NCBI GenBank assembly: GCA_017994375.1
Contig: JAGOLA010000002.1
Coordinates: 1 to 54,982 of the forward strand
DNA length: 54,982 nucleotides
Direction of reading: 5' to 3'
From: Candidatus Omnitrophota bacterium
Lineage (GTDB): Bacteria; Omnitrophota; Gorgyraeia; Duberdicusellales; 4484-171
Below are positions 9,001 to 26,897 of this stretch, piece after piece. The stretch's first letter is position 1, and each line of letters starts with the position of its first letter. The position numbers and the translations under genes are program-made. The notes beneath the pieces are model-generated. The model did no database searches, had not been told where the DNA came from, and saw only the letters and a program-made list of their open reading frames with translations.

Positions 9001-9508
9001 CGCTAGATCCCGCATAAGGAGTAGCAGTCGGAGTAATATTGTAGTTACTAGAATTACCGCTGCTAGTAGCTGGTGAATAAGTGTTATAGCCATAATTGTT
9101 GGCTGGCGAATAATTAGCCGAATAAGTAGTGGTCACATAGTTATAATAATTTTGATAGTTGTAATTGTTATAGCCGTAATAGTTGGAATTATACTGGTAG
9201 TCTGAACTGCTGCTATTGGAACTGGAAGAAGAAGAGGAATAATTCGAATCCGAAGATAAATCATACATCTCGGCATAAAGTTTGTTTAAAGAAAACAAAG
9301 AGCTCAAAATTCCTTTTGGCTTGGAAGGCAAAGGTGAAAAATATCCTTTTGAGGCAGAATAATAAGCCGGATTACTCGCTGAAGCTATATCCTGGTAGAC
9401 AAAACAGAAAAGCACGATAAAAGCAATTACGCGCATCCAAGGTTTAAAACTTGGACTGTGTAATTTGTTGAAAACTTTTAATTCTAAATTATCTATGTTA
9501 TCGTGCAT
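1..9508 (-). CDS. Giant secreted or surface protein. Only the N-terminal 3,169 codons are in the window; the ORF runs off at position 1 with no stop.
   Basis: The minus-strand frame starting at ATG 9508-9506 has an in-frame TAA just upstream at 9514-9512. Read by eye, it stays open to position 2. The supplied track lists only ORFs of 100 aa or less between 1 and 9500, which fits one unterminated ORF rather than fragments. The N-terminus reads MHDNIDNLELKVFNKLHSPSFKPWMRVIAFIVLFCFVYQDIASA, which looks like a signal peptide or membrane anchor. I recognised no known domain. Confidence 0.85.
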   Translation of the reverse strand, partial: MHDNIDNLELKVFNKLHSPSFKPWMRVIAFIVLFCFVYQDIASASNPAYYSASKGYFSPLPSKPKGILSSLFSLNKLYAEMYDLSSDSNYSSSSSSSNSSSSDYQYNSNYYGYNNYNYQNYYNYVTTTYSANYSPANNYGYNTYSPATSSGNSSNYNITPTATPYAGSSVQQYNTPGPGSYDNYVKNGGVTNDGQAFGPVSQNWYESNVSRPASNYYSNPNSGVYVNQPSASTPTSQPAAASSNYTGANYSSNTSAVSNQYPTSVGNTDSQSSSTWGAVKSTLSVVFPTTSAVVSTVDRATGGAISKAADTAVGYISSSYSPSPSTNNYSQPVASAQVSQTVSGPGIYVNQAPAVSSASQAQTAPKNYSNTNYSAPVTAASGQSQSFSNNTPGPGSYDNYVKNGGVTNDGRAFGPVSQNWYESNVSRPASSSPSGVYVNQPSASSPAASQPQATAANASSNRFESSSNSKFQAIKETADGIFPSHLVTDRTEARGIARSIHSAVGNMSENMGKSAASSGVAYPSATSGTTTYMDRSSNTVANSTSTPTITTQTTAASAVPAPSTEAQASSRWDDKGQLWKDVFGTIATGLKSSGGAVGVVLGTGLDYINGSALNNREAAAKQARGEELSWAERPWFSSEDGLSVLNPGANFGSTALGVATNDWMHEKFFKDSKAQQDYAAFQTTLSGIADPKARAQYISDNQNWLARVGVISVWDEKQGKEVIVGKAKEGDAVVAFEKSYLKDSFVGLPTSYSEKSFGTLSNWNDSAATAVAWRNHIQNNPISYVQQSYINNEGVQTSRAEVKDPQNVFLDRTFHFGGAIGQDTVPTNNHLAMILLGQPGTYNLAPGELPYIGPEVKPNSVSGTVQTSLIALKNGSYIYAPLQGLHSARGAIESGGQNTIIDQARITHTLQGAQALEILGQGVSLEALPGMGPISAGGNQGASSIPQLYFSKANYTLSPTNDINTGRLEGQLSWVLPNVDLAKVVSQDNYVHQGIVSNNFGVGAIARFSQNVSPANSIHMYGEHNSFWGAGMQIGVNGPLAIEGADPLFFRTTKLQDLSPLGVKTNLEAIQQDNLGAGKLPGLTYSTTFGKPWELNQNFTPETQALKVVQVINNRTLAFNAQTFDFSKIGINSGTTAIFSSESVTSGGVGGINNPFSGGNFSTAQLANSTYISTALTDKSHFASIPLQITGPQQLNQDALSFSPMFHNANHQFVGAQNNFANTGFNTVDMNKFVAAVAFDGNRNIASEVIAAARPEQIGGNNSKLQSLAGSHVALNMEGWAIQKLSTPGVVSGWNNIYTDSVSLIQNPVTGKIVENRVLLNGVNFWGVATDSGIQFIDNSFKVDSAFRLATPFDKVNQPVVQLNITKQGIADSGKTPFIQFSGDNPLVLNRAFAPEFQTNSNIDSLGNAINIGPRTLTLHKEGEFVFADGIQQTNLLFSSLSSSPSLSGDFRNATVVSKISGDTALSVQVDRNSKLLASGGLTFINNETIHFNSLGQPTELHAGYIQPIDGNRFAIAFRDAANQQAIGEFANAIRWDKQGAVSGDINKVFESARFMTEAGKWRDVVGLERMGNSISVTLSEGKQPLFRQSIQSELLKPPAATNEEFFNQVKTGYYQPLDNLATARPMQALTLGADGLLSGKASNFISGFNYNFSGSIAQDVRNYAITSQGFKGDLGFTRQVSAGKSLADGGLTIQDKETIIFNNVGQLITAHNGYLTPLDNNRFTVTFRDPVGQKAVGEFANAIRWDKLGNIQGNIKQIFDNARFMTEPGQWRNVIGLERLGNSISITLSEGKQPLFVQASQYQGSQNKEAGVDKQIARNIPFTTRALTTITLGADGLLSGKASNFISGFNYNFSGSIAQDLRNYAITNNGFTGDKVFKVVTNPKYNNEHIANYHLQFSKVNVIKFDAIGNTAQQNIRFEDVLTPRQLQEQIAQVRVEYAQKVREMGYSTERLPQEIRGLERRLADLNQRWSRELNLNGDLAGQPWYRGILHNRDDSIREEQLRVANQLRVLYQAQAVLNFDDPVKFLEQREQIIAKADQPSMGIPGAIYTDGLKVDALQRLANKVPVLQVAETQVQLQRMERNLNIIANQLMSPQYADRAINELGMTRAQLRDEYKRVAAQYNEQKEKVSTTIAGLMANPEIQRNPFMSDVLQNMNNWIGTTPDYRVTDIPIFHAAVPEHLRHPIRQTGGAVAGVVGDGLSWVVHDFAGNTLSTPVHAIMWGVDSAIGAIFDSDSWRRSAGAHEAFMWLYAANSVAGDLNELFTWDRTTTNAWALNAMRASDDLRIKNTNNSADWRDWEFEIRDEKGRPYAFMGNDWKFGIGFSLSKEHAKKEWREGNRWSSGLEYGLMSAGQVGKVALELYATRKVTGINLGRTTVAVAGVTRLAADELKYYQTAGYDARGNLVTPGQYLTPTESTVLSVSFALPAAGAKIAGYLGSATGLANTAATTTSWWSRVGAGALAIPQNPVTRGLATANLALGHVGTAATEGRIMHLGESLFNVGTTYAFTGAFNGLGQVTRSFIQYGRDIPLIGNTFKYIGPALSPTRGWSWITYPTIGAIAAPHFLDGGYSRPMNYVDGALGGLAIRSIIGVGNWAIPKSTSAVVASQEKIPTFITRTKDLVQRVAEPVRPFFNINNSPIATRFISITGLNQPLNFLAGSTALAKTELNYSGNSSVISKPLHEIIGPVSGITGIFMNPGRNIVSAAGNIAEKWFGINNNLPEISAIRSNTERVKFDKFMNDYAPIAAFPTSMLVSATDTFTQAASGSYTALGLSRPIETFKEVLSLASIKKQLEQLGNQLNDPNRMAGPAQWGRLVGGVMGATAGFKYLGDNIRSTTVAPISISREKVMFNGSPTRIAYFEGGTMPYSTLSNLQRVGYFTAQAHQGAASFMKWNTGLGFIMPTLGSDDQFKAISQSAYTTAYSLDTFATSSIGLSTMFNAIGAGYGKISDSAFIRGLEQTRPVQFAIHHPLTLVGAGSGMYYIGKSVDNFTDNDIANIAGNYIANAGLAIAGIGGLSFAHRMRTSISEAGWINKVSEFTSTAKFKTFYTTGTGLAGVGIGALRGDINNGWDALSYFGTGALVGYGLRKLPTITPLAIDVASTGAITYGATKAVFDPGISAIEKWLDPRNHFDWREASTPHLFDKHPVMGYRMETNDEGKLQRAVVNGQY
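3890..5077 (-). repeat. In-frame tandem duplication inside the giant ORF: two units of about 200 aa.
   Basis: 88-bp cores at 3928-4015 and 4531-4618 differ at one base, giving a period of 603 bp. Both units encode ...GGLT..ETI.FN..GQ....GY..P.D.NRF...FRD...Q.A.GEFANAIRWDK.G...G.I...F..ARFMTE.G.WR.V.GLER.GNSIS.TLSEGKQPLF ... LTLGADGLLSGKASNFISGFNYNFSGSIAQD.RNYAIT. The plus-strand shadow ORFs 4149-4367 and 4704-4991 mirror the same repeat. Confidence 0.85.
8158..8990 (-). repeat. Two-copy repeat of about 185 bp inside the low-complexity N-terminal part of the giant ORF, with a period of about 640-648 bp.
   Basis: Segments 8158-8342 and 8797-8990 are near-identical. Both encode NTPGPGSYDNYVKNGGVTNDG[QR]AFGPVSQNWYESNVSRPAS...SGVYVNQPSAS. 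Confidence 0.8.
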
Positions 9509-9590: not shown

Positions 9591-9635
9591 AAATAAAAAC
9601 CGGATTGCCTTCTCTTTTGAGATTCGGCAACCCGG
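9591..9635 (-). terminator. Intrinsic terminator forming the expression platform of the riboswitch at 9591-9735.
   Basis: On the RNA, CCGGGUUGCC (9635-9626) pairs with GGCAAUCCGG (9609-9600) over 10 bp including one G-U. A UUUUUAUUU tract follows (9599-9591). The 5' arm of the stem is also the 3' strand of the aptamer. Confidence 0.7.
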
Positions 9636-9735
9636 CTATCCGTTTAGATAAAACTAAGTTGTAGTAGAGCTTCCTAAATTAGGACCCGTGGCTTTGCGCC
9701 CTCCGCTTACGCTGGAGTTTGCCTTTATCGACCCC
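9591..9735 (-). promoter_or_regulatory. c-di-GMP-I (GEMM-I) riboswitch in the 5' leader of the giant ORF.
   Basis: The minus-strand RNA reads AAAGGCAAACUCCAGCGUAAGCGGAGGGCGCAAAGCCACGGGUCCUAA...CGGAUAGCCGGGUUGCCGA. This has the GEMM-I hallmarks: GGCAAAC, a hairpin capped by a GNRA loop (GUAA), the GCGCAAAGCC core, CCUAA, and the 3' AGCCGGGUUGCCGA segment (compare the Vibrio cholerae Vc2 aptamer). A terminator follows. Confidence 0.85.
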
Positions 9736-9979: not shown

Positions 9980-10843
9980 TTACATACCTACTCCACTAAA
10001 CAAGTCTCCCTTTATAAATTTAATTAGAATCGGCCCGGCAACAATAATAAGAATTACTGGTAAGATGCAAAAGATAAGCGGAATAAGCATCTTAAGCGGT
10101 GCTTTCATAGCTTGGCGTTCTCCTCTATGAAAACGTCGCATCCGAGTATCCTCAGAAAGAATCTTAAAAGCCTCTTCCACTGGAGTTCCCATGCGATCAG
10201 CCTGAATTAAGGTCCTTACAAAAGAGGTAACATCTGGTATCTCTAATCTTTTAGACATATCTCTTAAAGCTTCGGTGCGGGATTTTCCGATATTTATCTC
10301 TTTTAAAACTACTGAGAGTTCTTCAATTAAAGGATTAAACCTAACTTTATCAATAACCCATCTTACCGCTGACATAAAATCTAACCCTGCTCCCACACAC
10401 AAACCTAATAAATCTACTGTCTCTGGCAATATCCTTACTATAGCATATTTTCTTCTATTGATAGCAGACTTCATCATAATACCGGGCAAGATAAGTCCAA
10501 AAATAGCAGCTGATATCAACCATATCGGCTTCTCTAAGCCAAAGACATATAGTAAAAGCGGAAAAACAATAGCGCATATCTCCCGCATTCCAAGAAATTC
10601 GGCCGGGGTTAATTTCCACCGAGATAATGTTAGTTTACTGCGTAAAGCATGTTCCAACTTAAGGATTTTTAATATTACCTTATTTAGAGGAGTAAAAACT
10701 TTTAATAAAGGCATAAGCAGAGGATTTTTATCTTCTTTGACTTTTTCTTTAAAAACCGAAATAGTATCCGGCTCTTTAGGAACTAAACCAACAAAGATAA
10801 AAATGAAGGCTGCAATCAAAAATAAATATAGAAGAATAATCAT
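9980..10843 (-). CDS. tadC: TadC-like pilus platform protein (T2SS-F/GspF-type domain).
   Basis: 287 aa, polytopic. The T2SSF-like core reads ...LPETVDLLGLCVGAGLDFMSAVRWV...RTEALRDMSKRLEIPDVTSFVRTLIQADRMGTPVEEAF... It overlaps the upstream tadB-like gene by 4 nt. Confidence 0.8.
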   Translation of the reverse strand: MIILLYLFLIAAFIFIFVGLVPKEPDTISVFKEKVKEDKNPLLMPLLKVFTPLNKVILKILKLEHALRSKLTLSRWKLTPAEFLGMREICAIVFPLLLYVFGLEKPIWLISAAIFGLILPGIMMKSAINRRKYAIVRILPETVDLLGLCVGAGLDFMSAVRWVIDKVRFNPLIEELSVVLKEINIGKSRTEALRDMSKRLEIPDVTSFVRTLIQADRMGTPVEEAFKILSEDTRMRRFHRGERQAMKAPLKMLIPLIFCILPVILIIVAGPILIKFIKGDLFSGVGM

Positions 10844-11682
10844 ATCTTGACTCTCCCAAATAAAATTATTAAGCCAATACCTACGGTCTGAAGAATTAAA
10901 GCTATTAAAAGCAATAATCTTCCCAATTCATCCTGCCACATAATATCGAAGTGAGCCGGGTCCATTTTACGAACGATAAAAAAGAATACTGGGCCGATAA
11001 GAGAAATAATAATGGCTTGTAGCCGAGTTTGTAAAGTCAAAGTGGCTACCAACTCTTTTAACTTAAGCCGGTCTCTGATAGTTTCTACTAAACGGGAAAA
11101 TACTTTAGTTAAATCTCCTCCGGTTTCTCGAGCCACCATTATAGCTGAAGTAACTAAGGTTACTTCTTCTGAGCCCATCCTTTTATCCAATCTTAGTAAA
11201 GCTTCTTCTAAAGTTACTCCCACCTTTATTTCTCTGCTTACTAACGAAATCTCTTGGCTTAAAGGAGCGCTGGTTTCTTCTACCACTACATCAAAAGCTT
11301 GTATTAAGGTTAACCCTCCTTTTAAACAGCTATTCATAATCATAAGGCCGTCTACTAACTGGTTAATGAACCTTTTCTTTCTTAGGTTCTCCATAAATTT
11401 TACTAATAGTAAGGGACAAAGTACTCCTACAATCAAAAATATAATTACCACCAATACCTTTCGGGTAAAGATATAAGATAAAGCACCTAACACCAAGGGC
11501 AATCCAATATAGAGAAGAATAAGAGTTTTTTTCTGGACAAAAATGAACATCTCTTCGAATTGAGAAGCAGTTCGCATAGCTTTTTTTTGCTGGCTTTCTT
11601 CCCATTTTTGAAGTAGAAAACCTATACCGTAATAAGAAATTACTACTAAGGAAAATAAAAGAAGTATGTAGGCTAGGATCAT
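10840..11682 (-). CDS. tadB: TadB-like pilus platform protein (T2SS-F/GspF-type domain).
   Basis: 280 aa. The core reads ...MNSCLKGGLTLIQAFDVVVEETSAPLSQEI...LEEALLRLDKRMGSEEVTLVTSAIMVARETGGDLTKVFSRL..., flanked by TM segments. Confidence 0.8.
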   Translation of the reverse strand: MILAYILLLFSLVVISYYGIGFLLQKWEESQQKKAMRTASQFEEMFIFVQKKTLILLYIGLPLVLGALSYIFTRKVLVVIIFLIVGVLCPLLLVKFMENLRKKRFINQLVDGLMIMNSCLKGGLTLIQAFDVVVEETSAPLSQEISLVSREIKVGVTLEEALLRLDKRMGSEEVTLVTSAIMVARETGGDLTKVFSRLVETIRDRLKLKELVATLTLQTRLQAIIISLIGPVFFFIVRKMDPAHFDIMWQDELGRLLLLIALILQTVGIGLIILFGRVKI

Positions 11683-11692
11683 TTAATGCTTA

Positions 11693-11860
11693 CTAGTTGG
11701 GGTCAAACTGTTCTTCTAAGCCAAAAGTATCGGCTGCTTTTTTATAACTTCCTTGAAGGCGCCTTTTGATATAACCGGACATCGCTAAGAAAACAGCAAT
11801 AATCACCACTATTAAAATAGCATAAACAAGGATTACTTGCGACTGTTTACTTGTTCGCAT
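11693..11860 (-). CDS. Small Flp-like pilin paralogue of 55 aa, not in the ORF track, with Val in place of the conserved Glu5.
   Basis: ATG at 11860 and TAG at 11693-11695. The translation is MRTSKQSQVILVYAILIVVIIAVFLAMSGYIKRRLQGSYKKAADTFGLEEQFDPN. It aligns with the ...KAQSTLEYALLITVVIAVLLSMQAYIKRGMQGKFKD... paralogues at 15772-16113 and elsewhere. It overlaps the end of the upstream gene by 14 nt. Confidence 0.55.
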   Translation of the reverse strand: MRTSKQSQVILVYAILIVVIIAVFLAMSGYIKRRLQGSYKKAADTFGLEEQFDPN

Positions 11861-12665
11861 GATAATAAATTCCGATTATAGTGTAAGTATCTTTTAATAA
11901 CTCTTTCTCCGCTTCGGACTTAATATCCTTCAAGTAATAAGAGCTAATAAAAATATAATAAGCCTGATTATTATTTTTAAAAACTAAATTTTTAGCATTG
12001 GCGAACGGGGTCTCTGCTATATTCTTACTCTGCTCACCAGAAATTTCCGGGCATACTGGACAAGCCGAACTGATATCTACAGTGTCAAAATTACTTTTTT
12101 GTTCCGATAGTTTCCAGCCTAAAGAAGGCATTCTCCTAAGATAAAAATCTTCTACCTGCTTCGGGTTTTCTTTGGTTTTATAGGCAAAATAATGTATTCC
12201 TTTAGTGAAAGAATTATAGGATATTAATTCAGCGCTGGAAGGGTAAGGTGGCTTAAAGCTTGGTTTTTTATCCGGAGTAAAACATCCTTCTGGAGGGCAA
12301 GCTTTATTATCATTGCCTTTGGTTAAATCTCCGGTAATAACTGAATAAGAAGTTTCTTTCTTATTTAGCGAAGGCATAAAATTTAAGCTTAACATCATCC
12401 CTTTCTTAAGGTAAGAGTTAGGGGAAGCTTTATCTATTGGTTGCCAACCTTGTTTTGATAATCTCTCTTTATAAAATTGGCTAATTTGGCTTTTAGAAGA
12501 GTTGGAAGTATAGTGATATATTACGGATTCTCTATCTACTTCGGCAAATTTTTTAATCTCTTTTTTAATCAATTTGGAGTTAGGATAATAAGGTAAATTA
12601 GCGACTTCCGCCAAGGCTTTAAAAGATACTAAACAAAAAATAACTAAAATAATTTTTTTAACCAT
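11847..12665 (-). CDS. Secreted protein of unknown function with an internal two-fold duplication.
   Basis: I moved the start from the track's 12782 to ATG 12665, giving MVKKIILVIFCLVSFKALAEV, a typical signal peptide. This also removes the overlap with the upstream gene. The halves resemble each other: YYPNSKLI...YHYTSNSSKSQISQFYKERLSKQGWQ against PYPSSAELI...FAYKTKENPKQVEDFYLRRMPSLGWK. Confidence 0.6.
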   Translation of the reverse strand: MVKKIILVIFCLVSFKALAEVANLPYYPNSKLIKKEIKKFAEVDRESVIYHYTSNSSKSQISQFYKERLSKQGWQPIDKASPNSYLKKGMMLSLNFMPSLNKKETSYSVITGDLTKGNDNKACPPEGCFTPDKKPSFKPPYPSSAELISYNSFTKGIHYFAYKTKENPKQVEDFYLRRMPSLGWKLSEQKSNFDTVDISSACPVCPEISGEQSKNIAETPFANAKNLVFKNNNQAYYIFISSYYLKDIKSEAEKELLKDTYTIIGIYYHANK

Positions 12666-12684
12666 TGTCTTTATTCTTATTACT

Positions 12685-14010
12685 TTACTTCCAAAAGTCA
12701 ACTTCAATAATCGCAGCATCGTGTTCCCAAATAGGCTCGCAACTATAACCGTCGTGACGGGAACAAATTTGTCCTCTATCATTATAATTAAAAGTAGCTC
12801 GAGTGGAACTTTTTATATTAGGATATTGGGTAAGCCAAAGCTCCGAAGAACGCTGGCCGACATTACCGGCATGAGACTGAACAGTCTTGGCTTCCACCTC
12901 TCTATCATGCACTATATCGTCAATCCAGGCAATAATAAGCTGTGGTTCATTATTGGCAGTATAAAGAGTGGTTGTGCTATCTTTGTCGATATCTAGGCCT
13001 ATCCAGGCTCTAGTACTCATATCATAAGCATTATCTATAGAACTTAAGGCTCTTTGAAGGTGCATTATTGCCATCTGACAATTCTGCTGCCAACAAACAC
13101 AGCAAGGCCACCAACCAGCTAAGCAGCATGGAACGCAACTACAAGCCGCGGCTAGATACCCTTGAGCGTGGCGTAAATTATCAATAGCATCTTCGGTAAA
13201 AAATATCACTCGCTCTAAAGTATCGGTTTCTTCCGGATAAGTCATATTAGTGTGACGAATCTTATACTCCCAGATAGGATCAATGCAAATTTGCCCCCAA
13301 ACTTCATGTCGCCGGCCGGAGTAATCATTCCAGATAAAATTCTCAAACTTGCAATTTTCTACTGTCGCAGTAGTGAAACTATCTACCTTACTATAAAGAT
13401 AATGCTTATCGCTATCTCTAATCTTTACTGCTATACCGCTGTTAAGAAAAAGAAACTTATATCCGGCAGCCAAAGCAGTATAGTATAAATCAAACTGGTT
13501 AGGTTGATCTCTATGGACGATATTTCTTACCCGGCGGTAAAAATCCTGCTGGTTAAAGAAAAAACTGGGCACTATCTGCCATTGAATTTGGCGGGTTTCG
13601 GCCCAAAAAAAACGCAATAGTCTATCGGCCTCAATAGCCCAATAAATAGCTTCGCAAGGGTTCGGACAAGCTAAATTAAGGGCACCTACGGTTTGGTGGC
13701 GGGCTAAAAATAAAATATTCCAAGAGTGCTGAAAATGCCTAAAAGCTTCCCAGTTGAAACGCCGGTAATTTATCTCAAATATGCGGTTAGCAAAAGCTAC
13801 GTAATTGAAAGCATAGGCTAAGGGCGAAGCAGCAGCTAAAGCTCCGCCGTCAGTAGCATTGCCACTGTAGGTCTTAGTTCCGGCGATCTTTCCGATATTT
13901 ACGCTGATTAAAGCTGCAATGAGGATAACTAGTATTAAAGCAAAGAAAAAAGGGGCAAGCTGTCCTTTATGAAATGAAGACTTATTAAAATAACTATTAT
14001 TTTTAAACAT
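12685..14010 (-). CDS. TadG-like pilus-associated protein with a pseudopilin-like hydrophobic N-terminus and a Cys/Trp-rich cluster.
   Basis: About 441 aa. The N-terminus ...KGQLAPFFFALILVILIAALISVNIGKIAG resembles the TadG/TadE-type N-terminal helix. The motif AACSCVPCCLAGWWPCCVCWQQNC is encoded at about 13075-13155. The track start at 14013 is GTG; the ATG lies at 14010. Confidence 0.5.
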   Translation of the reverse strand: MFKNNSYFNKSSFHKGQLAPFFFALILVILIAALISVNIGKIAGTKTYSGNATDGGALAAASPLAYAFNYVAFANRIFEINYRRFNWEAFRHFQHSWNILFLARHQTVGALNLACPNPCEAIYWAIEADRLLRFFWAETRQIQWQIVPSFFFNQQDFYRRVRNIVHRDQPNQFDLYYTALAAGYKFLFLNSGIAVKIRDSDKHYLYSKVDSFTTATVENCKFENFIWNDYSGRRHEVWGQICIDPIWEYKIRHTNMTYPEETDTLERVIFFTEDAIDNLRHAQGYLAAACSCVPCCLAGWWPCCVCWQQNCQMAIMHLQRALSSIDNAYDMSTRAWIGLDIDKDSTTTLYTANNEPQLIIAWIDDIVHDREVEAKTVQSHAGNVGQRSSELWLTQYPNIKSSTRATFNYNDRGQICSRHDGYSCEPIWEHDAAIIEVDFWK

Positions 14011-14032
14011 CACCCCTTTACCTTCAGGTTAA

Positions 14033-14278
14033 CTAAAAATGGGTCTCTTCTTTGGTAAGCTCTTCGGGTGCGTAAATTGGCCAGACTATATCTTTCCAGC
14101 CTCCTCCGCCAGGATACCTGTTAGGTTGACCAGCTTCCTCTCTAGTGCTGCCAAATAAAGGCTGACGCTTAGCAACCTGGCGATTACCCCAAGTCCACAT
14201 AGCTATTATACTAAAAAATAACGATAATACTACCAAAAAAGCAATAGTTATTTCTATAGTAGTTTGGGATTTCTGCAT
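14033..14278 (-). CDS. Small pseudopilin-like protein of 81 aa.
   Basis: The N-terminus MQKSQTTIEITIAFLVVLSLFFSIIAM has the same S/Q...E(+5) leader plus hydrophobic helix as the pilin array. Confidence 0.55.
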   Translation of the reverse strand: MQKSQTTIEITIAFLVVLSLFFSIIAMWTWGNRQVAKRQPLFGSTREEAGQPNRYPGGGGWKDIVWPIYAPEELTKEETHF

Positions 14279-14285
14279 TTTTATC

Positions 14286-14924
14286 TTATTTATTTACTGA
14301 AAAACTTCGGGCTTTGCCGCTAGAACGACTCTGCTCCACGGTAGTAGCTCCTTTTATATAATAAGTCATCTCTTCAGCTACGGCTGAACCTCTGGTGCTG
14401 CTTATATTAGCCGGATCTTCCGTTAAATTCAAGCTCTCGGAAACTGCCGTAGCATATTCTCGGTCTACTCCGGTAACATCGGCATCCGGATCTAACACTA
14501 CATCACCTTGATCGTTAATCTCATAGATAAATTTTCTTTCGGGATCATTTTCTTCATCGGTATATATATCCAAGGTGCCTCCGGTAGCTCCAAAACGCCA
14601 TTGATCAGTTGACTCTACCTTAGTATATTTAGTTATCAAAGGCACAGCCCAATGGACGTAGCCGGAAGCGCTACGCAGGATTTTTTCACCGCGTAACGGT
14701 ACCTCAACATCGGCTTTACGGCTATCATTTATCGAATCGTGGCTTAAGATGACGTTTCTGTCGTGAGATTTTTTAAGCGAGCGGCGAAAATTCTCCATTA
14801 AAGTATATTGCTCGCTATTCATTTTCTGAATAAAAGTAACCAAAAAGCCGAAAGCAATCAATATTACTACTCCAAAAAGACCGGCTTCTACCAATCCTTG
14901 GGCTCTTTTATGAATACTTCTCAT
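14286..14924 (-). CDS. TadE/TadF-like pseudopilin of 212 aa.
   Basis: The N-terminus MRSIHKRAQGLVEAGLFGVVILIAFGFLVTFI has Glu at +5 after the putative A/Q cleavage site, followed by a globular domain. Confidence 0.6.
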   Translation of the reverse strand: MRSIHKRAQGLVEAGLFGVVILIAFGFLVTFIQKMNSEQYTLMENFRRSLKKSHDRNVILSHDSINDSRKADVEVPLRGEKILRSASGYVHWAVPLITKYTKVESTDQWRFGATGGTLDIYTDEENDPERKFIYEINDQGDVVLDPDADVTGVDREYATAVSESLNLTEDPANISSTRGSAVAEEMTYYIKGATTVEQSRSSGKARSFSVNK

Positions 14925-14942
14925 TTTTTTACTAACCTTTGC

Positions 14943-15371
14943 TTAATTAACACTAACTAAATCCCACTGTAAATTCCACTCAATATACTGAGTATCAGGA
15001 TAAAGAATAGCTGGCGGTTTGACAGCATAATCTACTACATCCCTTACGCTTCCCGCTTCTGATCCTACCGGGATATCATAATTATACCAAGCATCATCAT
15101 CGGTAGTAATAGTTAAGGTATTGCCCCCTTCATTCTCGAACTTATCAGAAGCTAAAGTATCGATTTGCTTATGCTCTTTGACTCTACTTCCATCGGCATT
15201 GTTTCCGGCCATATTAGGATAATAGCCAATAAAAGCATCGGATAAATCCTTTACTTTGGCTTGGGTTCCCCGCCGAATAAAGGGTTGCATAGCTAGCATT
15301 ACACCAATAATTATAGCAATCACTACGCCATACTCTAGTATGGCGTTGGCTTTTCTATTAATACTTATCAC
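14943..15371 (-). CDS. Flp/pseudopilin-like protein of 142 aa.
   Basis: The N-terminus ...NRKANAILEYGVVIAIIIGVMLAM shows the EY motif plus a hydrophobic helix. The track start is GTG. Confidence 0.6.
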   Translation of the reverse strand: MISINRKANAILEYGVVIAIIIGVMLAMQPFIRRGTQAKVKDLSDAFIGYYPNMAGNNADGSRVKEHKQIDTLASDKFENEGGNTLTITTDDDAWYNYDIPVGSEAGSVRDVVDYAVKPPAILYPDTQYIEWNLQWDLVSVN

Positions 15372-15411
15372 CCCTTAGATTTTTAAGACCCTAACGCTAA
15401 ACTCTTAAATA

Positions 15412-15720
15412 CTACTCTCCAGAGAGATCGCCTATCATCATAATCTCACTATGAGTAGTTGCTCCGATATCCGCGCTATACTTATCTTTATCATAATATT
15501 CGGCAATTGCCATGCTGGAATTCTTGGCTACTCCTCTAAGTAAAGTATTATTATAAGAGTATTCTTCTCCTAACTGGTCAATATTCTGCTTAACTCCTCC
15601 CTGTATGCCTCTCTTTAAATAGGCCTGCATAGTAAGCAAGGCTGCTACTGTTACTACTATAATCAAAGCATACTCCAAAGTGTATTGAGCTTTTCTGTAA
15701 GTTAAGCCAGATTCTCTCAT
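15412..15720 (-). CDS. Flp-family pilin paralogue of 102 aa.
   Basis: The translation begins MRESGLTYRKAQYTLEYALIIVVTVAALLTMQAYLKRGIQGG. A Shine-Dalgarno-like GAGG lies upstream. Confidence 0.7.
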   Translation of the reverse strand: MRESGLTYRKAQYTLEYALIIVVTVAALLTMQAYLKRGIQGGVKQNIDQLGEEYSYNNTLLRGVAKNSSMAIAEYYDKDKYSADIGATTHSEIMMIGDLSGE

Positions 15721-15771
15721 AACTTAAACTACCTCTTCGAATACTTGCCTCTTATAACTTAACCTAGGTGT

Positions 15772-16113
15772 TTATTCCCACTCAAAATTAACTGGGAACG
15801 ACTCTTTGTGTAAAGGCTTAATATCTTGATCAGTAGTAGTATTCTGGTTACCCGAAGTTACTACATTTAATCTGGTATTATGCCCTTCATTATAAGTTTC
15901 AGTAGTGGTGCTAGTAGTATCGAGATGGTAAGTGCCTTGGGTTAACCCCGGTGAATACTGATCACCAATTTGATCAGTTACATCCTTAAATTTACCCTGC
16001 ATACCTCTCTTGATATAAGCCTGCATGCTAAGCAGCACTGCAATTACTACTGTTATAAGAAGCGCATACTCCAAAGTACTTTGCGCTTTTCTTGGTTTAA
16101 GTAACATCTTCAC
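15772..16113 (-). CDS. Flp-family pilin paralogue of 113 aa.
   Basis: The translation begins MKMLLKPRKAQSTLEYALLITVVIAVLLSMQAYIKRGMQGKF. An AAGGAGGTG Shine-Dalgarno sequence lies upstream. Confidence 0.7.
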   Translation of the reverse strand: MKMLLKPRKAQSTLEYALLITVVIAVLLSMQAYIKRGMQGKFKDVTDQIGDQYSPGLTQGTYHLDTTSTTTETYNEGHNTRLNVVTSGNQNTTTDQDIKPLHKESFPVNFEWE

Positions 16114-16144
16114 ACCTCCTTATAAAATTAGTTTCAACTCCTTC

Positions 16145-16489
16145 TTACTGGTTTACATTGGAATCAAAGCTGGTAGTAGAATCTGCTGTCTTAGTCCAAA
16201 AATCGGGCTGACCTTCGCTTTCTACAAAAATTTCACTAATGTCTTGGTTAGCTGTTTGATTCCGGTTTTTATAACCAGCTTGTGGTTCATATTGGAACCC
16301 TTGTCCTAAAGTTACTCCTTCCGGTGTAACTTGGCCTGATACCTGGCTTAAGGCAAAATTAGCATCATACATCTTAGCTTGGATTGCCCTTCTTACTTCA
16401 TGCTGCATACCCAAAGCCGCAGCTACTACTAAAGAGAGAAGTATGGCATATTCGGCTGTTGACTGTGCTTTTCTTAATTTTCTTAACAT
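16145..16489 (-). CDS. Flp-family pilin paralogue of 114 aa.
   Basis: The translation begins MLRKLRKAQSTAEYAILLSLVVAAALGMQHEVRRAIQAKM. An AGGAGGTG Shine-Dalgarno sequence lies upstream. Confidence 0.7.
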   Translation of the reverse strand: MLRKLRKAQSTAEYAILLSLVVAAALGMQHEVRRAIQAKMYDANFALSQVSGQVTPEGVTLGQGFQYEPQAGYKNRNQTANQDISEIFVESEGQPDFWTKTADSTTSFDSNVNQ

Positions 16490-16511
16490 CTTTTATCACC
16501 TCCTATCCTAA

Positions 16512-16709
16512 TTATTCACCAGTATAAAGCCCGCCTCCGGCCTTATCTAAAAACTGCATCGAATGAGCATCAATTACGTCGGCGCTGTCAGCAAACATGT
16601 TATCTACTGCTGGTCTTATAACCTCTCTAGCGGCAAAAATTATCGCGGCTACTATCGCGGCTAAAATAATTACGTACTCTAAGATGTTTTGAGATTTTTT
16701 CTTTAACAT
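16512..16709 (-). CDS. Flp-family pilin of 65 aa.
   Basis: The track start at 16718 is GTG. ATG at 16709 lies 9 nt downstream of an AGGAGG sequence and gives MLKKKSQNILEYVIILAAIVAAIIFAAREVIRPAVDNMF... Confidence 0.7.
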   Translation of the reverse strand: MLKKKSQNILEYVIILAAIVAAIIFAAREVIRPAVDNMFADSADVIDAHSMQFLDKAGGGLYTGE

Positions 16710-16732
16710 TCCAATCACCTCCTTTATCCTTT

Positions 16733-16876
16733 TTATTGCATATTTTCGTTTAGGTCCTGCCTTACATTCTCAACCCGGGCACTAACTGCTCTTTGAATAT
16801 ATTTAGCTATCCCAAGAATAGAAACTATTATCATTACTACTAGTATTGCATATTCAATTGTACTTTGGCTTTTCAT
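16733..16876 (-). CDS. Minimal Flp-type pilin of 47 aa, not in the ORF track.
   Basis: ATG at 16876 and TAA at 16733-16735. The translation is MKSQSTIEYAILVVMIIVSILGIAKYIQRAVSARVENVRQDLNENMQ. Confidence 0.7.
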   Translation of the reverse strand: MKSQSTIEYAILVVMIIVSILGIAKYIQRAVSARVENVRQDLNENMQ

Positions 16877-16880
16877 CTTC

Positions 16881-17045
16881 TTATAAACCTTTTTGAACTA
16901 TACTATCAACTACTCTAGCCGCGTTATTCATTCCTCCGGATACTGCTGCCCTTATCCTGAAAGCGCCTAAGATTATAGCACCTAAAATTGTCGCCAATAT
17001 TAGAACATACTCAATAATACTCTGAGACTTACCTTTGGCTATCAT
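16881..17045 (-). CDS. Minimal Flp-type pilin of 54 aa, not in the ORF track.
   Basis: ATG at 17045 and TAA at 16881-16883. The translation is MIAKGKSQSIIEYVLILATILGAIILGAFRIRAAVSGGMNNAARVVDSIVQKGL. Confidence 0.7.
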   Translation of the reverse strand: MIAKGKSQSIIEYVLILATILGAIILGAFRIRAAVSGGMNNAARVVDSIVQKGL

Positions 17046-17178
17046 TGAACTCCTTAGTTATTTCTACAAATCTTCCATCCATGGCATTTTTAATATAGTT
17101 AGTCATTACTACTATCGCGGCTGATATGGCTAAAACTAACATGGTATATTCGATTATACTTTGCGTTAATTTTCTCAT
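17029..17178 (-). CDS. Minimal Flp-type pilin of 49 aa, not in the ORF track.
   Basis: ATG at 17178 and TAA at 17029-17031. The translation is MRKLTQSIIEYTMLVLAISAAIVVMTNYIKNAMDGRFVEITKEFNDSQR. It overlaps the next pilin gene by 17 nt. Confidence 0.65.
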   Translation of the reverse strand: MRKLTQSIIEYTMLVLAISAAIVVMTNYIKNAMDGRFVEITKEFNDSQR

Positions 17179-17342
17179 TCTTCTCCTACAATCTTATCTC
17201 TGCACTTCTCAAAATGTTTAACAAAGCTATTGTACTTAACGCTAGAAAGAAAAGCTGCTCCGATAAAAGCCGATATTACTGCGGCGCTGATCAAAAAATA
17301 TTCCAAAGTAGATTGAGCTTTTCTTTTTTTACTTCTTAACAT
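17175..17342 (-). CDS. Minimal Flp-type pilin of 55 aa, the first gene of the operon, not in the ORF track.
   Basis: ATG at 17342 is preceded by GGAG. TGA at 17175-17177 overlaps the next ATG in an ATGA arrangement. The translation is MLRSKKRKAQSTLEYFLISAAVISAFIGAAFLSSVKYNSFVKHFEKCRDKIVGEE. Confidence 0.7.
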   Translation of the reverse strand: MLRSKKRKAQSTLEYFLISAAVISAFIGAAFLSSVKYNSFVKHFEKCRDKIVGEE

Positions 17343-17354
17343 CTTTTTCTCCAT

Positions 17355-17406
17355 AAAAAAACCGGGCTACCTTTTTATCTTTCCAAGAAGACCTTCGGTA
17401 GCCCGG
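17355..17406 (-). terminator. Intrinsic terminator forming the expression platform of the riboswitch at 17355-17508.
   Basis: CCGGGCUACC (17406-17397) pairs perfectly with GGUAGCCCGG (17371-17362) over 10 bp. Seven U residues follow (17361-17355). The first pilin ATG lies only about 12 nt downstream. Confidence 0.75.
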
Positions 17407-17508
17407 CTATCCTATAAATACGCTTAGGCACACTGAATCCCTAGTTAGGATCCGTAGCTTTGCGCCCCTTGACATCTTTAATGCCAAGGGTTGCCTTTTC
17501 GTCGTCTC
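17355..17508 (-). promoter_or_regulatory. c-di-GMP-I (GEMM-I) riboswitch in the 5' leader of the pilin/tad operon.
   Basis: The minus-strand RNA reads AAAAGGCAACCCUUGGCAUUAAAGAUGUCAAGGGGCGCAAAGCUACGGAUCCUAACUAGGGAUUCAGUGUGCCUAAGCGUAUUUAUAGGAUAGCCGGGCUACCGAAGG. It has the same conserved blocks as the copy at 9591-9735 and as GEMM-I in general, followed by a terminator. Confidence 0.85.
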
Positions 17509-17524: not shown

Positions 17525-17554
17525 AATATACCATAATTTATCTACCTGGGGCAA
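17525..17554 (-). promoter_or_regulatory. Candidate promoter with an extended -10 element for the riboswitch and pilin operon.
   Basis: On the minus strand, TTGCCC (17554-17549) is followed by an 18-nt spacer ending in TGG, then TATATT (17530-17525). The TGnTATATT arrangement is an extended -10. Confidence 0.4.
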
Positions 17555-17666: not shown

Positions 17667-19112
17667 TTATAAGATAAAAACCCGTTTATTATTAATATAA
17701 AGACTATTTTTATTGAAATTTTTCTTCACTTCTAAAGGAATTTTAAGGAATACTTTAACATACTCTTTACCTATCACGAAATTGCCGCTCTTTTCTTTAG
17801 GCTCCCAGCCACCAATAAGTTCTTTAAAAATGACCGAAAGTATTTCCCCCACTAAAATAAAGTCTTTAGGGTTCTTAAATGTCAGTTTTTGGGGTAAAAT
17901 CCGGCTTAAATACTCTTTTTTCTTACTTTTTAGAGTAAAAGCCTTTTCTAATATTGACATTTCTTCACTAAAACCTTTATCTAAATAAGGCCATAAATAT
18001 AAATACTTTTTTACTAAGAAAGGAAGACTTTTAAACTTAGCTCCAATATTAAAATTAGTAAAAATACCCCAAGTAGGAGATAAAACCGGATTTTTTCTTA
18101 TAAGGACATTATTTAATATAACTCCTTTTTTATCTTTCTGTTGTAAAAGCTTTGCTATTGTAATCTGAGTATAAAACTCTCCTATCTCCTCCCAATGCAA
18201 TCTGCGAAAATAGCGGTGTTGGTTAAGAATTAATACCCCTTGAGGAATTATTTTAGGGTAATAGCCTACGGCAAATTTAGGTTGAGCTTGATTTAAGGGT
18301 TGCTCGGCTAAAATCCGGCCTTCTCCGTTAAGAAACTGGATTTTTTTTATTCCGCTTTCTACCCCTCTTAGATAGTCAAAAACTAACGGCGAAAGATAGC
18401 CAAAACTCTTAGTATAGCCAATTATAAGGATTTTGTCGGCTAAAGCTTGCTCTACCTTTTTTATAGCGGCCTTAAGGGGAATATAAAAATATTCTAAATT
18501 GCAGGGTTTGTCCCAAAAAGTTGACATCTTAGCGTCTAGATACCCTTCATAGCCATTCTTAAAATAAAACTTTATGGTAGAAGCTAACTGGACATTTTCT
18601 TTTACCTTATTAAGGTTTATTACTATCTTCTGTTGGGATAAGATGTTTTCAAAGTAGTTAATCTTGTTTAACGGTATATTCTTAAGACCAACTAATCTTA
18701 AAAAGCCTTTTTCTTTTAAGCTTTCGGAAAGAGCTTTATTATTCAAAGAAGAAAACACTGCTAAAACCAGGAATTTCTTAAGAAAATCGTAGTCTAATTT
18801 AGGAAAATAAGTTTTAAGTTCAGAAATTAAATGTTCTAATAAGCCAATTTGGCTATCTAGGGCTTGAAGAAGGATTAAACCGCAATTACTAATCTTATTT
18901 TTATTCTGATATAAAGAGAGTGATTCTTTTCGGCCGAATTTATCTCTTAAACCTTTGGATTTAAATATTTTATGTATTGTGCTCTTAGATAAGTCTATTT
19001 GGTATTTTATCTTTAATAAGCTGGATAAAGCTCTTACCCCTAAATAAGGGAATTTTTTCTTTTCACGAAGAATTATCTTTTTTGACTCGGCAGTAATATT
19101 TTTGCGCGACAT
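17667..19112 (-). CDS. Orphan 481-aa protein with an N-terminal helix-turn-helix-like region. It may be a transposase-derived protein or a regulator.
   Basis: The N-terminus ...KKIILREKKKFPYLGVRALSSLLKIKYQIDLSKSTIHKIFKSKGL resembles the HTH of transposase or regulator N-termini. I could not find a DDE triad or flanking inverted repeats. The gene is markedly more AT-rich than its neighbours. Confidence 0.35.
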   Translation of the reverse strand: MSRKNITAESKKIILREKKKFPYLGVRALSSLLKIKYQIDLSKSTIHKIFKSKGLRDKFGRKESLSLYQNKNKISNCGLILLQALDSQIGLLEHLISELKTYFPKLDYDFLKKFLVLAVFSSLNNKALSESLKEKGFLRLVGLKNIPLNKINYFENILSQQKIVINLNKVKENVQLASTIKFYFKNGYEGYLDAKMSTFWDKPCNLEYFYIPLKAAIKKVEQALADKILIIGYTKSFGYLSPLVFDYLRGVESGIKKIQFLNGEGRILAEQPLNQAQPKFAVGYYPKIIPQGVLILNQHRYFRRLHWEEIGEFYTQITIAKLLQQKDKKGVILNNVLIRKNPVLSPTWGIFTNFNIGAKFKSLPFLVKKYLYLWPYLDKGFSEEMSILEKAFTLKSKKKEYLSRILPQKLTFKNPKDFILVGEILSVIFKELIGGWEPKEKSGNFVIGKEYVKVFLKIPLEVKKNFNKNSLYINNKRVFIL

Positions 19113-20883: not shown

Positions 20884-21027
20884 GGGTAGAATTATAGCAT
20901 ACTCACATAAAACAAAGAAGTCCTTTTAGAGTAAAGAGGAGTCCGTCGTGCGTACTACGATAATAAATTACATGCTTCATATCGCAAGTCACAAGTGTAA
21001 GAGAAGGGTATGGCAAATAGTAATAAA

Positions 21028-22137
21028 TTACTTGAAGATATGTTGAGTTTTTAGGCAAACTTTCACTAGCATTAGCATAACCGGCACTTCTATTAAGACA
21101 CCGACGACTGTAGCTAAGGAAGCTCCTGAAGATAAGCCGAAAAGAACAGTTGAAGTAGCAATAGCCACTTCAAAATGGTTGCTAGCTCCGATTAAAGCTG
21201 AAGGCGCAGCGTCGCGATAAGGTAATTTTAGCCATTTTGCTAATCCGTAGGTAATTGCAAAAATTAAGCTAGTTTGAATAAAAAGCGGAATTGCGATCAA
21301 AATAATTATCTGCGGTTGATTAATTATCAGCTCGCCTTTAAAAGAAAACAATAGTAGGAGCGTAAGGAGCAAAGCAGATATCGAAACCGGCGTTAAATAA
21401 TGAAGGAATTGTTCTTCAAACCACTTAAATCCCTTCTTAGCAATTAACCACTTTCGAGAGTAATACCCTAATAATAACGGTAATCCCACATAAATTGCTA
21501 CCGATAATACAATCGTCTGCCAAGGAATGGGCATTTTATTTACTCCTAAAAGCCAACCGCCTAACGGAGCATAAAGAAACAGCATGGTTAAAGAATTAAT
21601 AGCGACCATAACTAGCGTATGGCCGTCATTACCTTTGGCAAGATGGCCCCAAATTAAAACCATCGCAGTGCAAGGTGCTATGCCAAGAAGAATACATCCG
21701 GCGATATACGAGCGAAACAACTCAACCTGCATTCCGCCTTTTACAATCTCCGTTCCCGGAAGCCATCCCTTAAATAAAAACCCGATAAACAACCAAGCAA
21801 TTATAAACATAGTAAACGGCTTAATGCACCAGTTCACAACTAATGTCAGGATAACCGGCTTAGGTGTTTTACCGGCTTTGATAACTTCGGCAAAATCAAT
21901 TTTTACCATGATAGGGTACATCATGAAAAAAAGGCAAATTGCTATAGGAATAGATACTTGATAAACTGAAAACTGATCAAGCTTTACAGCTACCTGCGGA
22001 AATAATTTACCGAAAATAATGCCTAGTCCGATACAAAGAATAACCCAACCGCTAAGATACTTTTCAAAAAAACTTAAGCGGCGTTCCTCGTGAATTACAC
22101 GCTCAATTTTTCTCCTTAAAATAACCGCAGAATACAA
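21028..22137 (-). CDS. acr3: ACR3-family arsenite efflux transporter.
   Basis: 369 aa, polytopic. The N-terminus ...[23 protein letters not shown]... and ...[13 protein letters not shown]... are typical of ACR3/ArsB-type (BART superfamily) proteins. The gene lies in an ars gene context. Confidence 0.8.
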
Positions 22138-22802
22138 ATCCTCGCATAATACAAACCGACAAGAATAAAAATCAAACCGGTAATCCTGCGGGTATAAAAT
22201 TCAAGCTTTGTAATCTTACTAAACCAGTGGCTCATTGAAGTAACACCCAAAGCGATTGCCACAGCGAAAACCAATACTGGAAGCCCTGTCCCTATCCCAT
22301 AAATAAACGGCAAAAGCGTCCCTGCCTTGCTGTTAAGCGCCAATGAAATCAAACTACCGAAGAATAACGCCGCTGATACAGGACAAAATGCCAAAGCTAA
22401 TATCAGGCCTAAAAGAAAAGCTCCCGGCGCGCCAGATTCAACAAGCTTATTGTGGTGCTTTTGAGACAACGAAATCCCAGGCAACTTCAAAGTGATAACT
22501 TCTAATAAAAATAATCCGGTGATTATCATCAGAGGCCCTAAGGACTTGACCATATATTTCTGCAGGAACTGCGCAACCTGCGGAACATTCAAAAGCGAAT
22601 TGATAATGATCCACCCCAACACCGAATAAGCGGTCATCCTGCCGATTGTGTAAGCCAATCCAGAAATAAAAACAAGCGCTGGATGAACGATTTTCTTTGA
22701 GAGAAACGATACCGCCGCAATGTTTGTAGCCAATGGGCACGGGCTAATTGAAGTCAATATTCCCAGCCACAACGCAGAACCTAAAGCTATCAACAACTCC
22801 AT
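22116..22802 (-). CDS. CcdA/DsbD-family transmembrane thiol-disulfide protein. It may be an ArsG-like permease (uncertain).
   Basis: 228 aa with about 6 TM segments. The N-terminal ...[12 protein letters not shown]... motif is characteristic of the CcdA/DsbD_2 family. Confidence 0.6.
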
Positions 22803-23456: not shown

Positions 23457-23469
23457 CTTGCTCCTCCGT

Positions 23470-24243: not shown

Positions 24244-24254
24244 AATCTCCTCGC

Positions 24255-25729: not shown

Positions 25730-25744
25730 TATTTACTTGCTGTT

Positions 25745-26892: not shown

Positions 26893-26897
26893 AAAAA

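Follow-up and report, generated by a model that had tools for sequence, protein, structure and literature searches.

A probable Tad-type pilus subunit operon with 11 pilin-like genes and a predicted c-di-GMP riboswitch leader in Omnitrophota

INTRODUCTION

Omnitrophota are uncultured, ultra-small and probably predatory or parasitic bacteria. In this study, we analysed a 54,982-bp stretch of DNA from a Candidatus Omnitrophota bacterium (GenBank assembly GCA_017994375.1, contig JAGOLA010000002.1, positions 1–54,982), the whole of which is hereafter called the window, and which carries an array of 11 consecutive pilin-like genes (genes 1–11, numbered in minus-strand order) behind a riboswitch aptamer of the cyclic di-GMP (c-di-GMP)-I clan. 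The array is likely to be the filament-subunit operon of a Tad-type (type IVc) pilus locus conserved in Omnitrophota, for which we propose a model of riboswitch control and filament assembly. The closest related locus (L001) and a more distant one (L002) were used for comparison.

The described systems nearest to this locus are the Tad/Flp loci of type IVc pili, and flp-tadV-rcpCAB-tadZABCDEFG of Aggregatibacter, pilA-cpaA-K of Caulobacter and the predation Tad locus of Bdellovibrio were taken as the comparison set. Like these, the window encodes a CpaB/RcpC protein, a secretin of the PF13629 type, TadZ- and TadA-like ATPases, a platform split into TadB and TadC, TadE- and TadG-like proteins, and very short pilins with an E5-Y6 core. 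Compared with the known loci, the window carries 11–13 pilin-like genes instead of one to three flp genes plus tadE and tadF; the residue at −1 is A, S or T (A or G in the wider family) with Q at +1 in 91 %; and the pilins stay below the cutoffs of the Flp_Fap and TadE hidden Markov models (HMMs). Further differences are a TadZ::TadA fusion, a secretin::TonB_C fusion, a second TadA-like ATPase, the lack of tadV and tadD in the window locus, the riboswitch leader and an attached giant open reading frame (ORF).

A precedent for the leader is pilA1 of Clostridioides difficile, which is controlled by a class II c-di-GMP ON riboswitch; GEMM-I riboswitches also occur upstream of pilus genes. As in the case of pilA1, the aptamer of the window lies in the leader ahead of the first pilin gene, a terminator competes with the aptamer, and pilin transcription is predicted to be turned on by c-di-GMP. 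In contrast to pilA1, the aptamer is of class I, the operon is of the Tad type with multiple pilins, and a second copy precedes the neighbouring giant gene.

The pilin signal itself resembles that of the archaeal Epd pilins (Methanococcus, EppA-dependent, PF04021 motif QxSxExxxL), with which it shares Q at +1, E at +5, a hydrophobic residue at +9, K or R at −2 and a short mature length. In archaeal Epd systems, too, a locus contains several paralogous pilins and the platform is divided as it is in Tad, and PF04021 is the Pfam family most often matched by the pilin family of the window. The differences are a diderm bacterial host, which has a secretin and CpaB, an S at +2 and not at +3, and scores of the window proteins below the PF04021 cutoff. 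An archaeal (Epd-like) origin of Tad has been proposed (PMC6668835).

In the accessible parts of the respective sources, Tad complexes are described as widespread in Omnitrophota, with V. archaeovorus expressing them when grown in co-culture (Seymour et al. 2023, PMC10066038), and a type II secretion-like locus is described as a conserved feature upstream of the giant genes of Omnitrophota (West-Roberts et al. 2023, bioRxiv 10.1101/2023.11.21.568195), an association that a 2026 preprint repeats. The phrase ‘many small genes with class III signal peptides’ at this locus is also found in the accessible text of earlier papers. The searchable text of these three sources mentions no riboswitch, and does not dissect the number of array genes, their orthology or the cleavage motif. 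Unlike the published type II secretion system (T2SS)-like locus, the window copy is split by what looks like an arsenic-resistance island. Thus, the locus type is known in outline; what is new here is the quantified architecture of the array with its one-to-one orthology, an (A or G)/Q processing signature lying between curated families (here and below, a slash stands before residue +1), and the paired, predicted c-di-GMP riboswitches. Neither the riboswitch nor the phylum-wide conservation was part of a first-pass annotation, made by a model from the sequence alone, from which this analysis started.

RESULTS

Organization of the array and its N-terminal signal

The minus strand between 14033 and 17342 (14033–17354 when the upstream ATG of gene 1 is included) contains 11 consecutive pilin-like ORFs, all present with the sizes and positions listed in the first-pass annotation. 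Overlaps between neighbouring genes do not exceed 17 nt and gaps do not exceed 51 nt, and ribosome-binding sites of the GGAG type precede most of the genes. Alignment of the 11 N-termini, anchored on the glutamate, showed a K/R-rich leader in all 11 and about 20 hydrophobic residues after the motif. The residue at −1 was A in six genes, S in four (genes 3, 4, 5 and 11) and T in gene 2, with G in no window gene; +1 was Q in 10 of 11, gene 9 having N; +5 was E throughout; and +6 was Y except for A in gene 10 and I in gene 11. K or R occupied −2 in 10 of 11, and S was found at +2, not +3. Accordingly, the motif first described for the array, a basic leader with [AST]-Q-[SN]-x-x-E-[YI], holds for the leader, for [AST] at −1 and for E at +5, but [SN] at +2 applies to only seven of 11 genes, and N at +1 of gene 9 and A at +6 of gene 10 depart from it. 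The presence of residues other than Gly at −1 implies a prepilin peptidase with archaeal-like tolerance.

A six-frame scan of the 54,982 bp with the pattern [GAST][QN]xxxE, followed by a hydrophobic tail and preceded by a basic leader, matched all 11 array genes and nothing else, and gave no match in 20 shuffled sequences.

Genes 1–5 are small, with mature lengths of 44–59 aa. Gene 1 (17175–17342) encodes a minimal pilin-like protein of 55 aa (46 aa mature; 59 aa from the upstream ATG) with the site KKRKA/QSTLEY, and shows 57 % identity to its L001 orthologue at a nonsynonymous-to-synonymous ratio (pN/pS) of 0.34. Since the alternative ATG at 17354 touches the U-run of the terminator described below, and since GGAG precedes the ATG at 17342, the 55-aa start is the better choice. 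The next three are also minimal pilin-like genes: gene 2 (17029–17178; 49 aa, RKLT/QSIIEY), with 66 % identity to its orthologue and with a relative named ‘Flp pilus assembly pilin Flp’ by the Joint Genome Institute (JGI); gene 3 (16881–17045; 54 aa, KGKS/QSIIEY); and gene 4 (16733–16876; 47 aa, MKS/QSTIEY). Gene 5 (16512–16709) is slightly larger, with 65 aa (68 from a GTG) and KKKS/QNILEY.

Genes 6–10 have mature lengths of 91–204 aa. The mid-size members are gene 6 (16145–16489; 114 aa, KLRKA/QSTAEY), gene 7 (15772–16113; 113 aa, or 111 from an ATG, KPRKA/QSTLEYALLI...MQAYIKRGMQG...GDQYSP) and gene 8 (15412–15720; 102 aa, YRKA/QYTLEY), the last being the closest paralogue of gene 7 (35 % identity). 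They are followed by the pilin-like gene 9 (14943–15371; 142 aa, NRKA/NAILEY), the large pilin-like gene 10 (14286–14924; 212 aa, HKRA/QGLVEA), whose counterparts elsewhere measure 174–582 aa, and gene 11 (14033–14278; 81 aa, MQKS/QTTIEI), a TadE-like pseudopilin candidate. In the gene 7 family (alignment A1), Y-x-K-R-x-x-Q-G and G-D-Q-Y-S-P are invariant beyond the helix and are followed by a T/S-rich stretch, of which glycosylation is possible.

Conservation of the array across Omnitrophota

Gene 7 represents the most conserved orthogroup of the array. It has 69 homologues, and every named one is from Candidatus Omnitrophota. Based on a GTDB scan, in which 119 stretches from species genomes encode a gene 7 relative, 80 loci were kept, nearly all of them also from Omnitrophota. 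All 80 loci contained same-strand pilin-like arrays, and opposite-strand matches were zero. In the 42 loci not cut by a contig end, the array comprised 6–15 genes with a median of nine. The array had been called unusually large, which is correct with respect to textbook tad loci but not within Omnitrophota, where a multi-gene array is the normal layout of the adhesion-pilus locus.

L001 shows the same gene order, with 11 pilin-like genes of 54, 49, 56, 49, 68, 111, 112, 103, 146, 230 and 88 aa; L002 has nine plus one. Between the window and L001, identity was 43–66 % on the diagonal and at most 39 % off the diagonal. Paralogues within the window were 5–39 % identical (20–39 % among genes 1–5), compared with 51–66 % for genes 1–5 and their positional orthologues in L001. 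For all 11 orthologue pairs pN/pS was 0.19–0.63, with synonymous sites saturated. Reciprocal best hits across 82 loci were collinear. Gene 7 had one in every locus, as follows from the selection, and genes 11, 10, 6, 5 and 2 had them in 52, 49, 41, 39 and 33 loci, respectively, while genes 1, 4 and 8 had such hits in only three to five loci and represent lineage-specific additions.

One-to-one orthology together with pN/pS below 1 in all 11 pairs indicates that no gene is decaying and that none is a recent variant cassette, and rules out spurious or decaying small ORFs. Decay of all but one gene, named at the outset as an outcome that would speak against the pilin array, was thus not observed, all 11 genes being intact. 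Orthology, selection and collinearity in combination suggest distinct fixed roles rather than variation cassettes.

Assignment of the array proteins to a pilin family

With NCBIfam and Pfam, the 10–11 array proteins searched reached no family at the curated cutoffs, and the Flp_Fap and TadE check proposed in the first-pass annotation likewise found no window protein at a curated cutoff. The N_methyl signal (PF07963; G followed by F or M, then T-L-x-E) was matched neither by the window proteins nor by 144 family members, the residue at +1 being Q and not F or M. At the family level, the 144 array proteins from 13 loci gave 29 matches to Class_IIIsignal (best E 1e-8), 12 to Flp_Fap and five to TadE at E < 0.01. 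The reciprocal best hit and positional counterpart of gene 11 in L002 passes TadE (29.2 vs 22.9 bits).

A word-based homologue search with gene 2 recovered only itself and one relative, and the five small pilins were therefore used in an exhaustive profile search. This search yielded 1,200 cluster representatives at E ≤ 1e-3. Among the top 150, 148 had Q at +1, and −1 was A in 74 and G in 63; at E < 0.01, 54 of these 150 matched Class_IIIsignal and 24 matched Flp_Fap. The best Flp_Fap E-value family-wide was 1.4e-6. In 762 array proteins, in which −1 and +1 were left unconstrained, −2 was K or R in 79 %, −1 was A in 48 % and G in 43 %, +1 was Q in 91 %, +2 was S in 61 % and +6 was Y in 80 %. 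Compared with the two curated motifs, all 11 window genes have xxxxE(Y, I or A) plus a helix, and the −1 Gly of the Flp motif is present in none of the 11 (43 % family-wide); of the Epd-type residues, the window shows Q+1 in 10 of 11, E+5 in 11 of 11, the hydrophobic residue at +9, and K or R at −2 in 10 of 11. A search of PDB sequences with the gene 7 family profile gave chance matches only (E ≥ 0.5).

Judged by sequence, the window proteins are best described as putative Tad-system pilins, with a signal between the Flp motif G/xxxxEY and the archaeal class III motif QxSxExxxL. The Flp or pseudopilin identity given to them at first is thereby retained in the sense of Tad-type subunits, given the Tad machinery, the x-x-x-x-E-Y core and the TadE match of the L002 counterpart of gene 11; membership of the window proteins themselves in Flp_Fap or TadE is not, as their own scores stay below both cutoffs.

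Riboswitch and terminator upstream of the array

On the minus strand upstream of gene 1, an aptamer of the c-di-GMP-I class (GEMM-I clan, CL00126) lies at 17393–17505 in the leader of the pilin operon (Rfam RF01051, match at 17394–17505 with 46.1 bits, the gathering score being 35). A consensus scan detected a promoter-like site about 20 nt further upstream, at 17525–17554 (TTGCCC, 18-nt spacer, TATATT with a TG extension), which is a pattern match only. An intrinsic terminator at 17355–17408 forms the putative expression platform, with AGCCGGGCUACC as its 5′ arm and GGUAGCCCGG as its 3′ arm, followed by U7. The 5′ arm AGCCGGGCUACC is at the same time the 3′ strand of the aptamer P2/P1 helices, and its complement GGUAGCCCGG with the U7 run recurs 40 nt downstream. 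The terminator hairpin has a folding energy of −33.8 kcal/mol (z = −6.0) and forms in the minimum-free-energy fold of the full leader. Since aptamer and terminator share this strand, ligand binding and termination should be mutually exclusive, and the element is thus predicted to be an ON switch.

The pilin-leader aptamer is present at the same place in L001. With a rough covariance model of our own, built from five aptamer copies and applied to 69 loci, an aptamer was located in 26, at a distance of 43–356 nt ahead of the first pilin gene. The overlapping terminator was kept in at least 17 of these 26 related leaders, with compensatory changes. In an alignment of 44 aptamer copies fitted to the model, the helices were 98 % paired and compensatory double changes occurred in 11 of 17 pairs, compared with 22–44 % pairing in slid controls.

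Downstream genes of the pilin operon

Five further minus-strand genes follow the array. The TadG-like protein (12685–14013; 442 aa) passes Pfam Tad PF13400 with 25.4 bits against a cutoff of 22.3. Its N-terminus, HKG/QLAPFFFALIL, has the G-Q pair with no E at +5, and the gene is kept in the same place in L001 and L002. It is followed by a conserved protein without a family (11847–12782; 275–311 aa) with an N-terminal signal-like helix, whose positional counterparts in L001 and L002 (281 and 285 aa) are tagged PF27226 in precomputed data. A thirteenth pilin-like gene at 11693–11860 encodes 55 aa with SKQS/QVILVY, in which the leader, Q+1 and the helix are present and V replaces E at +5. It has the YIKRRLQG motif in common with the gene 7 family, and counterparts of 53–59 aa occur in L001, L002 and many other loci, those of L002, L022, L023 and other loci having E at +5. 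T2SS subunits without E5 take a filament-tip position. Both of these additional pilin-related genes, the TadG-like and the 55-aa gene, had been pointed out in the first-pass annotation and are real, as PF13400 is passed by the former and Q+1 is seen in the latter.

The last two genes encode inner-membrane platform proteins with one T2SSF domain each, a TadB-like protein (10840–11682; Pfam T2SSF E = 1e-19) and a TadC-like protein (9980–10843; E = 1.6e-17), the latter being the last gene of the predicted operon.

Tad machinery

A second minus-strand block, upstream of the array at 25831–31551, encodes RcpC/CpaB, a secretin, a ParA-like::TadA-like fusion and a second TadA-like ATPase, with the order being the same in L001 and L002. 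RcpC/CpaB (30715–31551) matches the NCBIfam CpaB equivalog TIGR03177 with 149 bits (cutoff 71). The secretin (29070–30743) combines PF00263 with a PF13629 N-domain and a C-terminal TonB_C domain (residues 478–555), a fusion that is kept in L001 and L002. To our knowledge, no role has been described for TonB_C on a secretin. The ParA/MinD-like (TadZ-like) domain is fused to a TadA-like ATPase in a protein of 722 aa (26898–29066), for which TadA TIGR03819 is the best family with 331 bits, under the equivalog cutoff of 373. The second, shorter TadA-like ATPase (25831–26892; 353 aa) may serve retraction or act as an accessory motor. L001 also has this gene, and in L002 a DUF192 gene stands in its place. 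Altogether, the window encodes CpaB, a secretin, a TadA-like ATPase, a TadZ-like domain, two T2SSF proteins and a TadG-like protein, which are the parts of Tad/Cpa type IVc machinery.

Giant ORF and second riboswitch

Downstream of the pilin operon, a giant minus-strand ORF (1–9508) runs off the window after more than 3169 aa. The protein is S/N/Y-rich with an N-terminal membrane anchor, and no Pfam domain was found in the 3169 aa present in the window. Giant ORFs occupy the same place in L001 (5482 aa) and L002 (>3321 aa). This ORF is preceded by a second riboswitch of the c-di-GMP-I clan (9619–9735, minus strand; Rfam RF03167, match at 9622–9732, 62.8 vs 59 bits), with its own overlapping terminator of the same design and a promoter-like site at 9789–9761. 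The pairing of giant ORF and riboswitch is also found in L001, L002 and 14 further Omnitrophota loci, and the covariance model placed an aptamer downstream of the array in 16 loci. The giant protein was also considered as a pilin-like substrate and rejected, its N-terminus being a plain anchor with no Q/E motif.

Other genes of the window

Directly upstream of the pilin riboswitch, a 481-aa ORF without a family (17667–19112, minus strand) has a helix-turn-helix-like N-terminus. Its position is kept in L001 (482 aa) and in L002 (513 aa, with a weak HTH_33 match), and the protein could be either a regulator or a transposase that has been domesticated. A minus-strand block at about 20900–25830, flanked by the second Tad ATPase and an ATP-binding cassette (ABC) transporter, resembles arsenic-resistance loci, with an Acr3/SBF transporter, a DsbD-like protein, a 149-aa ORF, an S-adenosylmethionine methyltransferase and an ArsP permease. 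Its GC content is 0.41–0.47, compared with about 0.36 around it, and the two flanking genes are side by side in L001; the block has the look of an island that was inserted into the Tad supercluster of the window and divides it. The small array proteins as precursors of ribosomally synthesized and post-translationally modified peptides or bacteriocins, exported by this nearby ABC transporter, were rejected: the transporter lacks a peptidase domain and is missing from L002, and the leaders are signals of class III.

A SurA-like peptidyl-prolyl isomerase gene (31564–32520, minus strand) is located directly upstream of rcpC and also occurs in L002; the accessible text of West-Roberts et al. 2023 (bioRxiv 10.1101/2023.11.21.568195) counts it among the genes of the conserved locus. 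The cluster ends upstream at a PIN_5 ribonuclease gene, which lies on the plus strand (32696–33286) and thus opposite to the cluster.

DISCUSSION

Taken together, the gene content, its conservation and the leader RNA point with good probability to the array as the filament-subunit operon of a Tad-type pilus. In the model that we propose, transcription would begin some 20 nt before the aptamer. In the ligand-free RNA, the terminator would form immediately ahead of gene 1; when c-di-GMP is bound, the aptamer would keep the shared strand, and read-through would give an operon transcript of about 7.4 kb (17342 to 9980), which would encode the platform as well as every filament subunit. Cleavage before Q+1 would fall to a prepilin peptidase whose gene lies elsewhere and which would tolerate A, S or T at −1, and the TadZ::TadA ATPase, the TadB/TadC platform, CpaB and the secretin would then build the filament from the subunits. 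The shaft may consist of one or more of the Flp-like proteins of 44–59 residues (genes 1–5), while genes 6–9, gene 10, the TadE-like gene 11 and the TadG-like protein may form a fixed minor-pilin complex for priming or for the tip, the small-to-large order of the array being parallel to gspG-H-I-J-K. Of the readings offered in the first-pass annotation, such an elaborate minor-pilin or tip complex fits best, although we infer it. As both riboswitches are of the same design, high c-di-GMP is predicted to switch on the pilus subunits and the giant protein together. The giant surface protein, induced through its own riboswitch alongside the pilus subunits, would thus belong to one attachment apparatus, probably for prey or host contact.

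A more far-reaching form of this model, which we offer tentatively and hold to be doubtful as a whole, is a heteropolymeric Tad-type filament of at least nine distinct subunits, each of them conserved, that has kept an archaeal Epd/EppA-like site (A, G or S at −1; Q+1, which may cyclise to pyroglutamate), in which the state of the archaea-to-bacteria Tad transfer would be preserved or re-created, and which would be co-induced with the giant surface protein by paired c-di-GMP ON riboswitches as one organelle of prey or host attachment.

Several observations weigh against a Tad-type pilus operon under c-di-GMP control. No window protein reaches the Flp_Fap cutoff (PF04964), the best being gene 2 with 20.5 vs 32.2 bits, followed by gene 4 (E = 0.27) and no match for the others; for Class_IIIsignal (PF04021), the cutoff is 23.7 bits, and genes 1 and 7 reach 15.8 and 15.7 bits, respectively; and TadE (PF07811, cutoff 22.9 bits) is matched by no window protein, gene 11 included. 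AlphaFold2 models of gene 7 (25-sequence alignment; predicted local distance difference test score, pLDDT, 58.8) and gene 10 (seven sequences; pLDDT 54.1) show a helix with a beta-hairpin and a helix with a C-terminal beta-sheet, respectively, with only the N-terminal helix confident in each. Foldseek matched the gene 10 model to no PDB entry below E = 0.2, and the hits, with template-modelling (TM) scores below 0.25, were discarded as meaningless. A Peptidase_A24 prepilin peptidase was found neither among the window ORFs scanned nor among the L001 and L002 locus genes. The loci were picked for having a gene 7 homologue, and the array statistics describe that subset. An upstream aptamer was found in only 26 of 69 loci with the rough model; in E-value mode, the aptamer scores equally well with a GGC-variant model; and c-di-GMP as ligand and the ON polarity of the pilin-leader riboswitch are both predicted from sequence. 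The steps that go past gene content, conservation and RNA architecture, namely the major subunit, the architecture of the filament and the roles at the tip, are ones that we infer.

Foremost among the rivals is a T2SS-like pseudopilus. In this reading, the pilin-like proteins would make up a short piston within the periplasm and serve to export or display the giant protein by way of the secretin, with no extended adhesive pilus. A giant ORF adjoins the locus each time (window, L001 and L002), the same riboswitch class precedes both the array and the giant ORF, and one major-like gene followed by a graded minor series is as in gspG-K; in their accessible text, West-Roberts et al. 2023 and the 2026 preprint also read the locus as T2SS-like. 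In contrast, no N_methyl or GspG-type signal was present in the 144 proteins scanned, the platform is split into TadB and TadC, the ATPases score best against TadA and not GspE, CpaB is a Tad-specific part, and the giant ORF has a plain N-terminal anchor with no recognizable secretion domain. We consider the piston unlikely as the sole function, and it could coexist with a pilus.

The other two rivals concern parts of the array and are less probable still. That genes 1–5 are interchangeable alternative major pilins, serving antigenic or functional variation, would agree with the lineage differences in number and size at the first three to five array positions and with the scarcity of reciprocal best hits for genes 1, 4 and 8 (three to five of 82 loci). 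However, these five genes are much closer to their L001 orthologues (51–66 %) than to each other (20–39 %), pN/pS is below 1 for all, and no invertible element or silent-cassette architecture was seen, all genes being co-oriented behind one riboswitch. Alternative major subunits, one of the two readings in the first-pass annotation, are disfavoured by these data, by paralogue identities of 5–39 %, one-to-one L001 orthologues, collinear order and purifying selection, and we regard them as quite improbable. Archaeal bindosomes contain sugar-binding proteins with a class III signal, and genes 6–10 might similarly be surface proteins that use this signal only for anchoring or assembly, and not filament subunits. 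Their family is nearest to the archaeal Class_IIIsignal profile, and their C-terminal parts are T/S-rich with no recognizable pilin fold. These proteins are short, however (91–204 aa mature), with no binding or enzymatic domain; their models of a helix plus beta-sheet match the ‘lollipop’ layout of pilins at low confidence; and they hold a fixed place between the Flp-like and the TadE/TadG-like genes. A bindosome-like role is therefore judged very improbable, and filament subunits of a Tad-type pilus remain our preferred interpretation of genes 1–11.

The array defines a large family of bacterial pilins, about 1,200 clusters when grouped at 50 % identity, that has Q at +1 and a non-Gly −1 site and bridges Flp and the archaeal class III pilins; since curated HMMs miss this family, annotation pipelines leave its genes hypothetical. 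The Tad tip complex is, as far as we know, poorly understood in any organism, and the fixed collinear set of 8–11 subunits makes the locus a good target for modelling it. For Omnitrophota, the Tad locus and the giant genes are the main genomic clues to host attachment. If the pilin operon and the giant gene are each placed behind an ON-type c-di-GMP riboswitch, this would provide a concrete regulatory input to attachment that is testable without culture.

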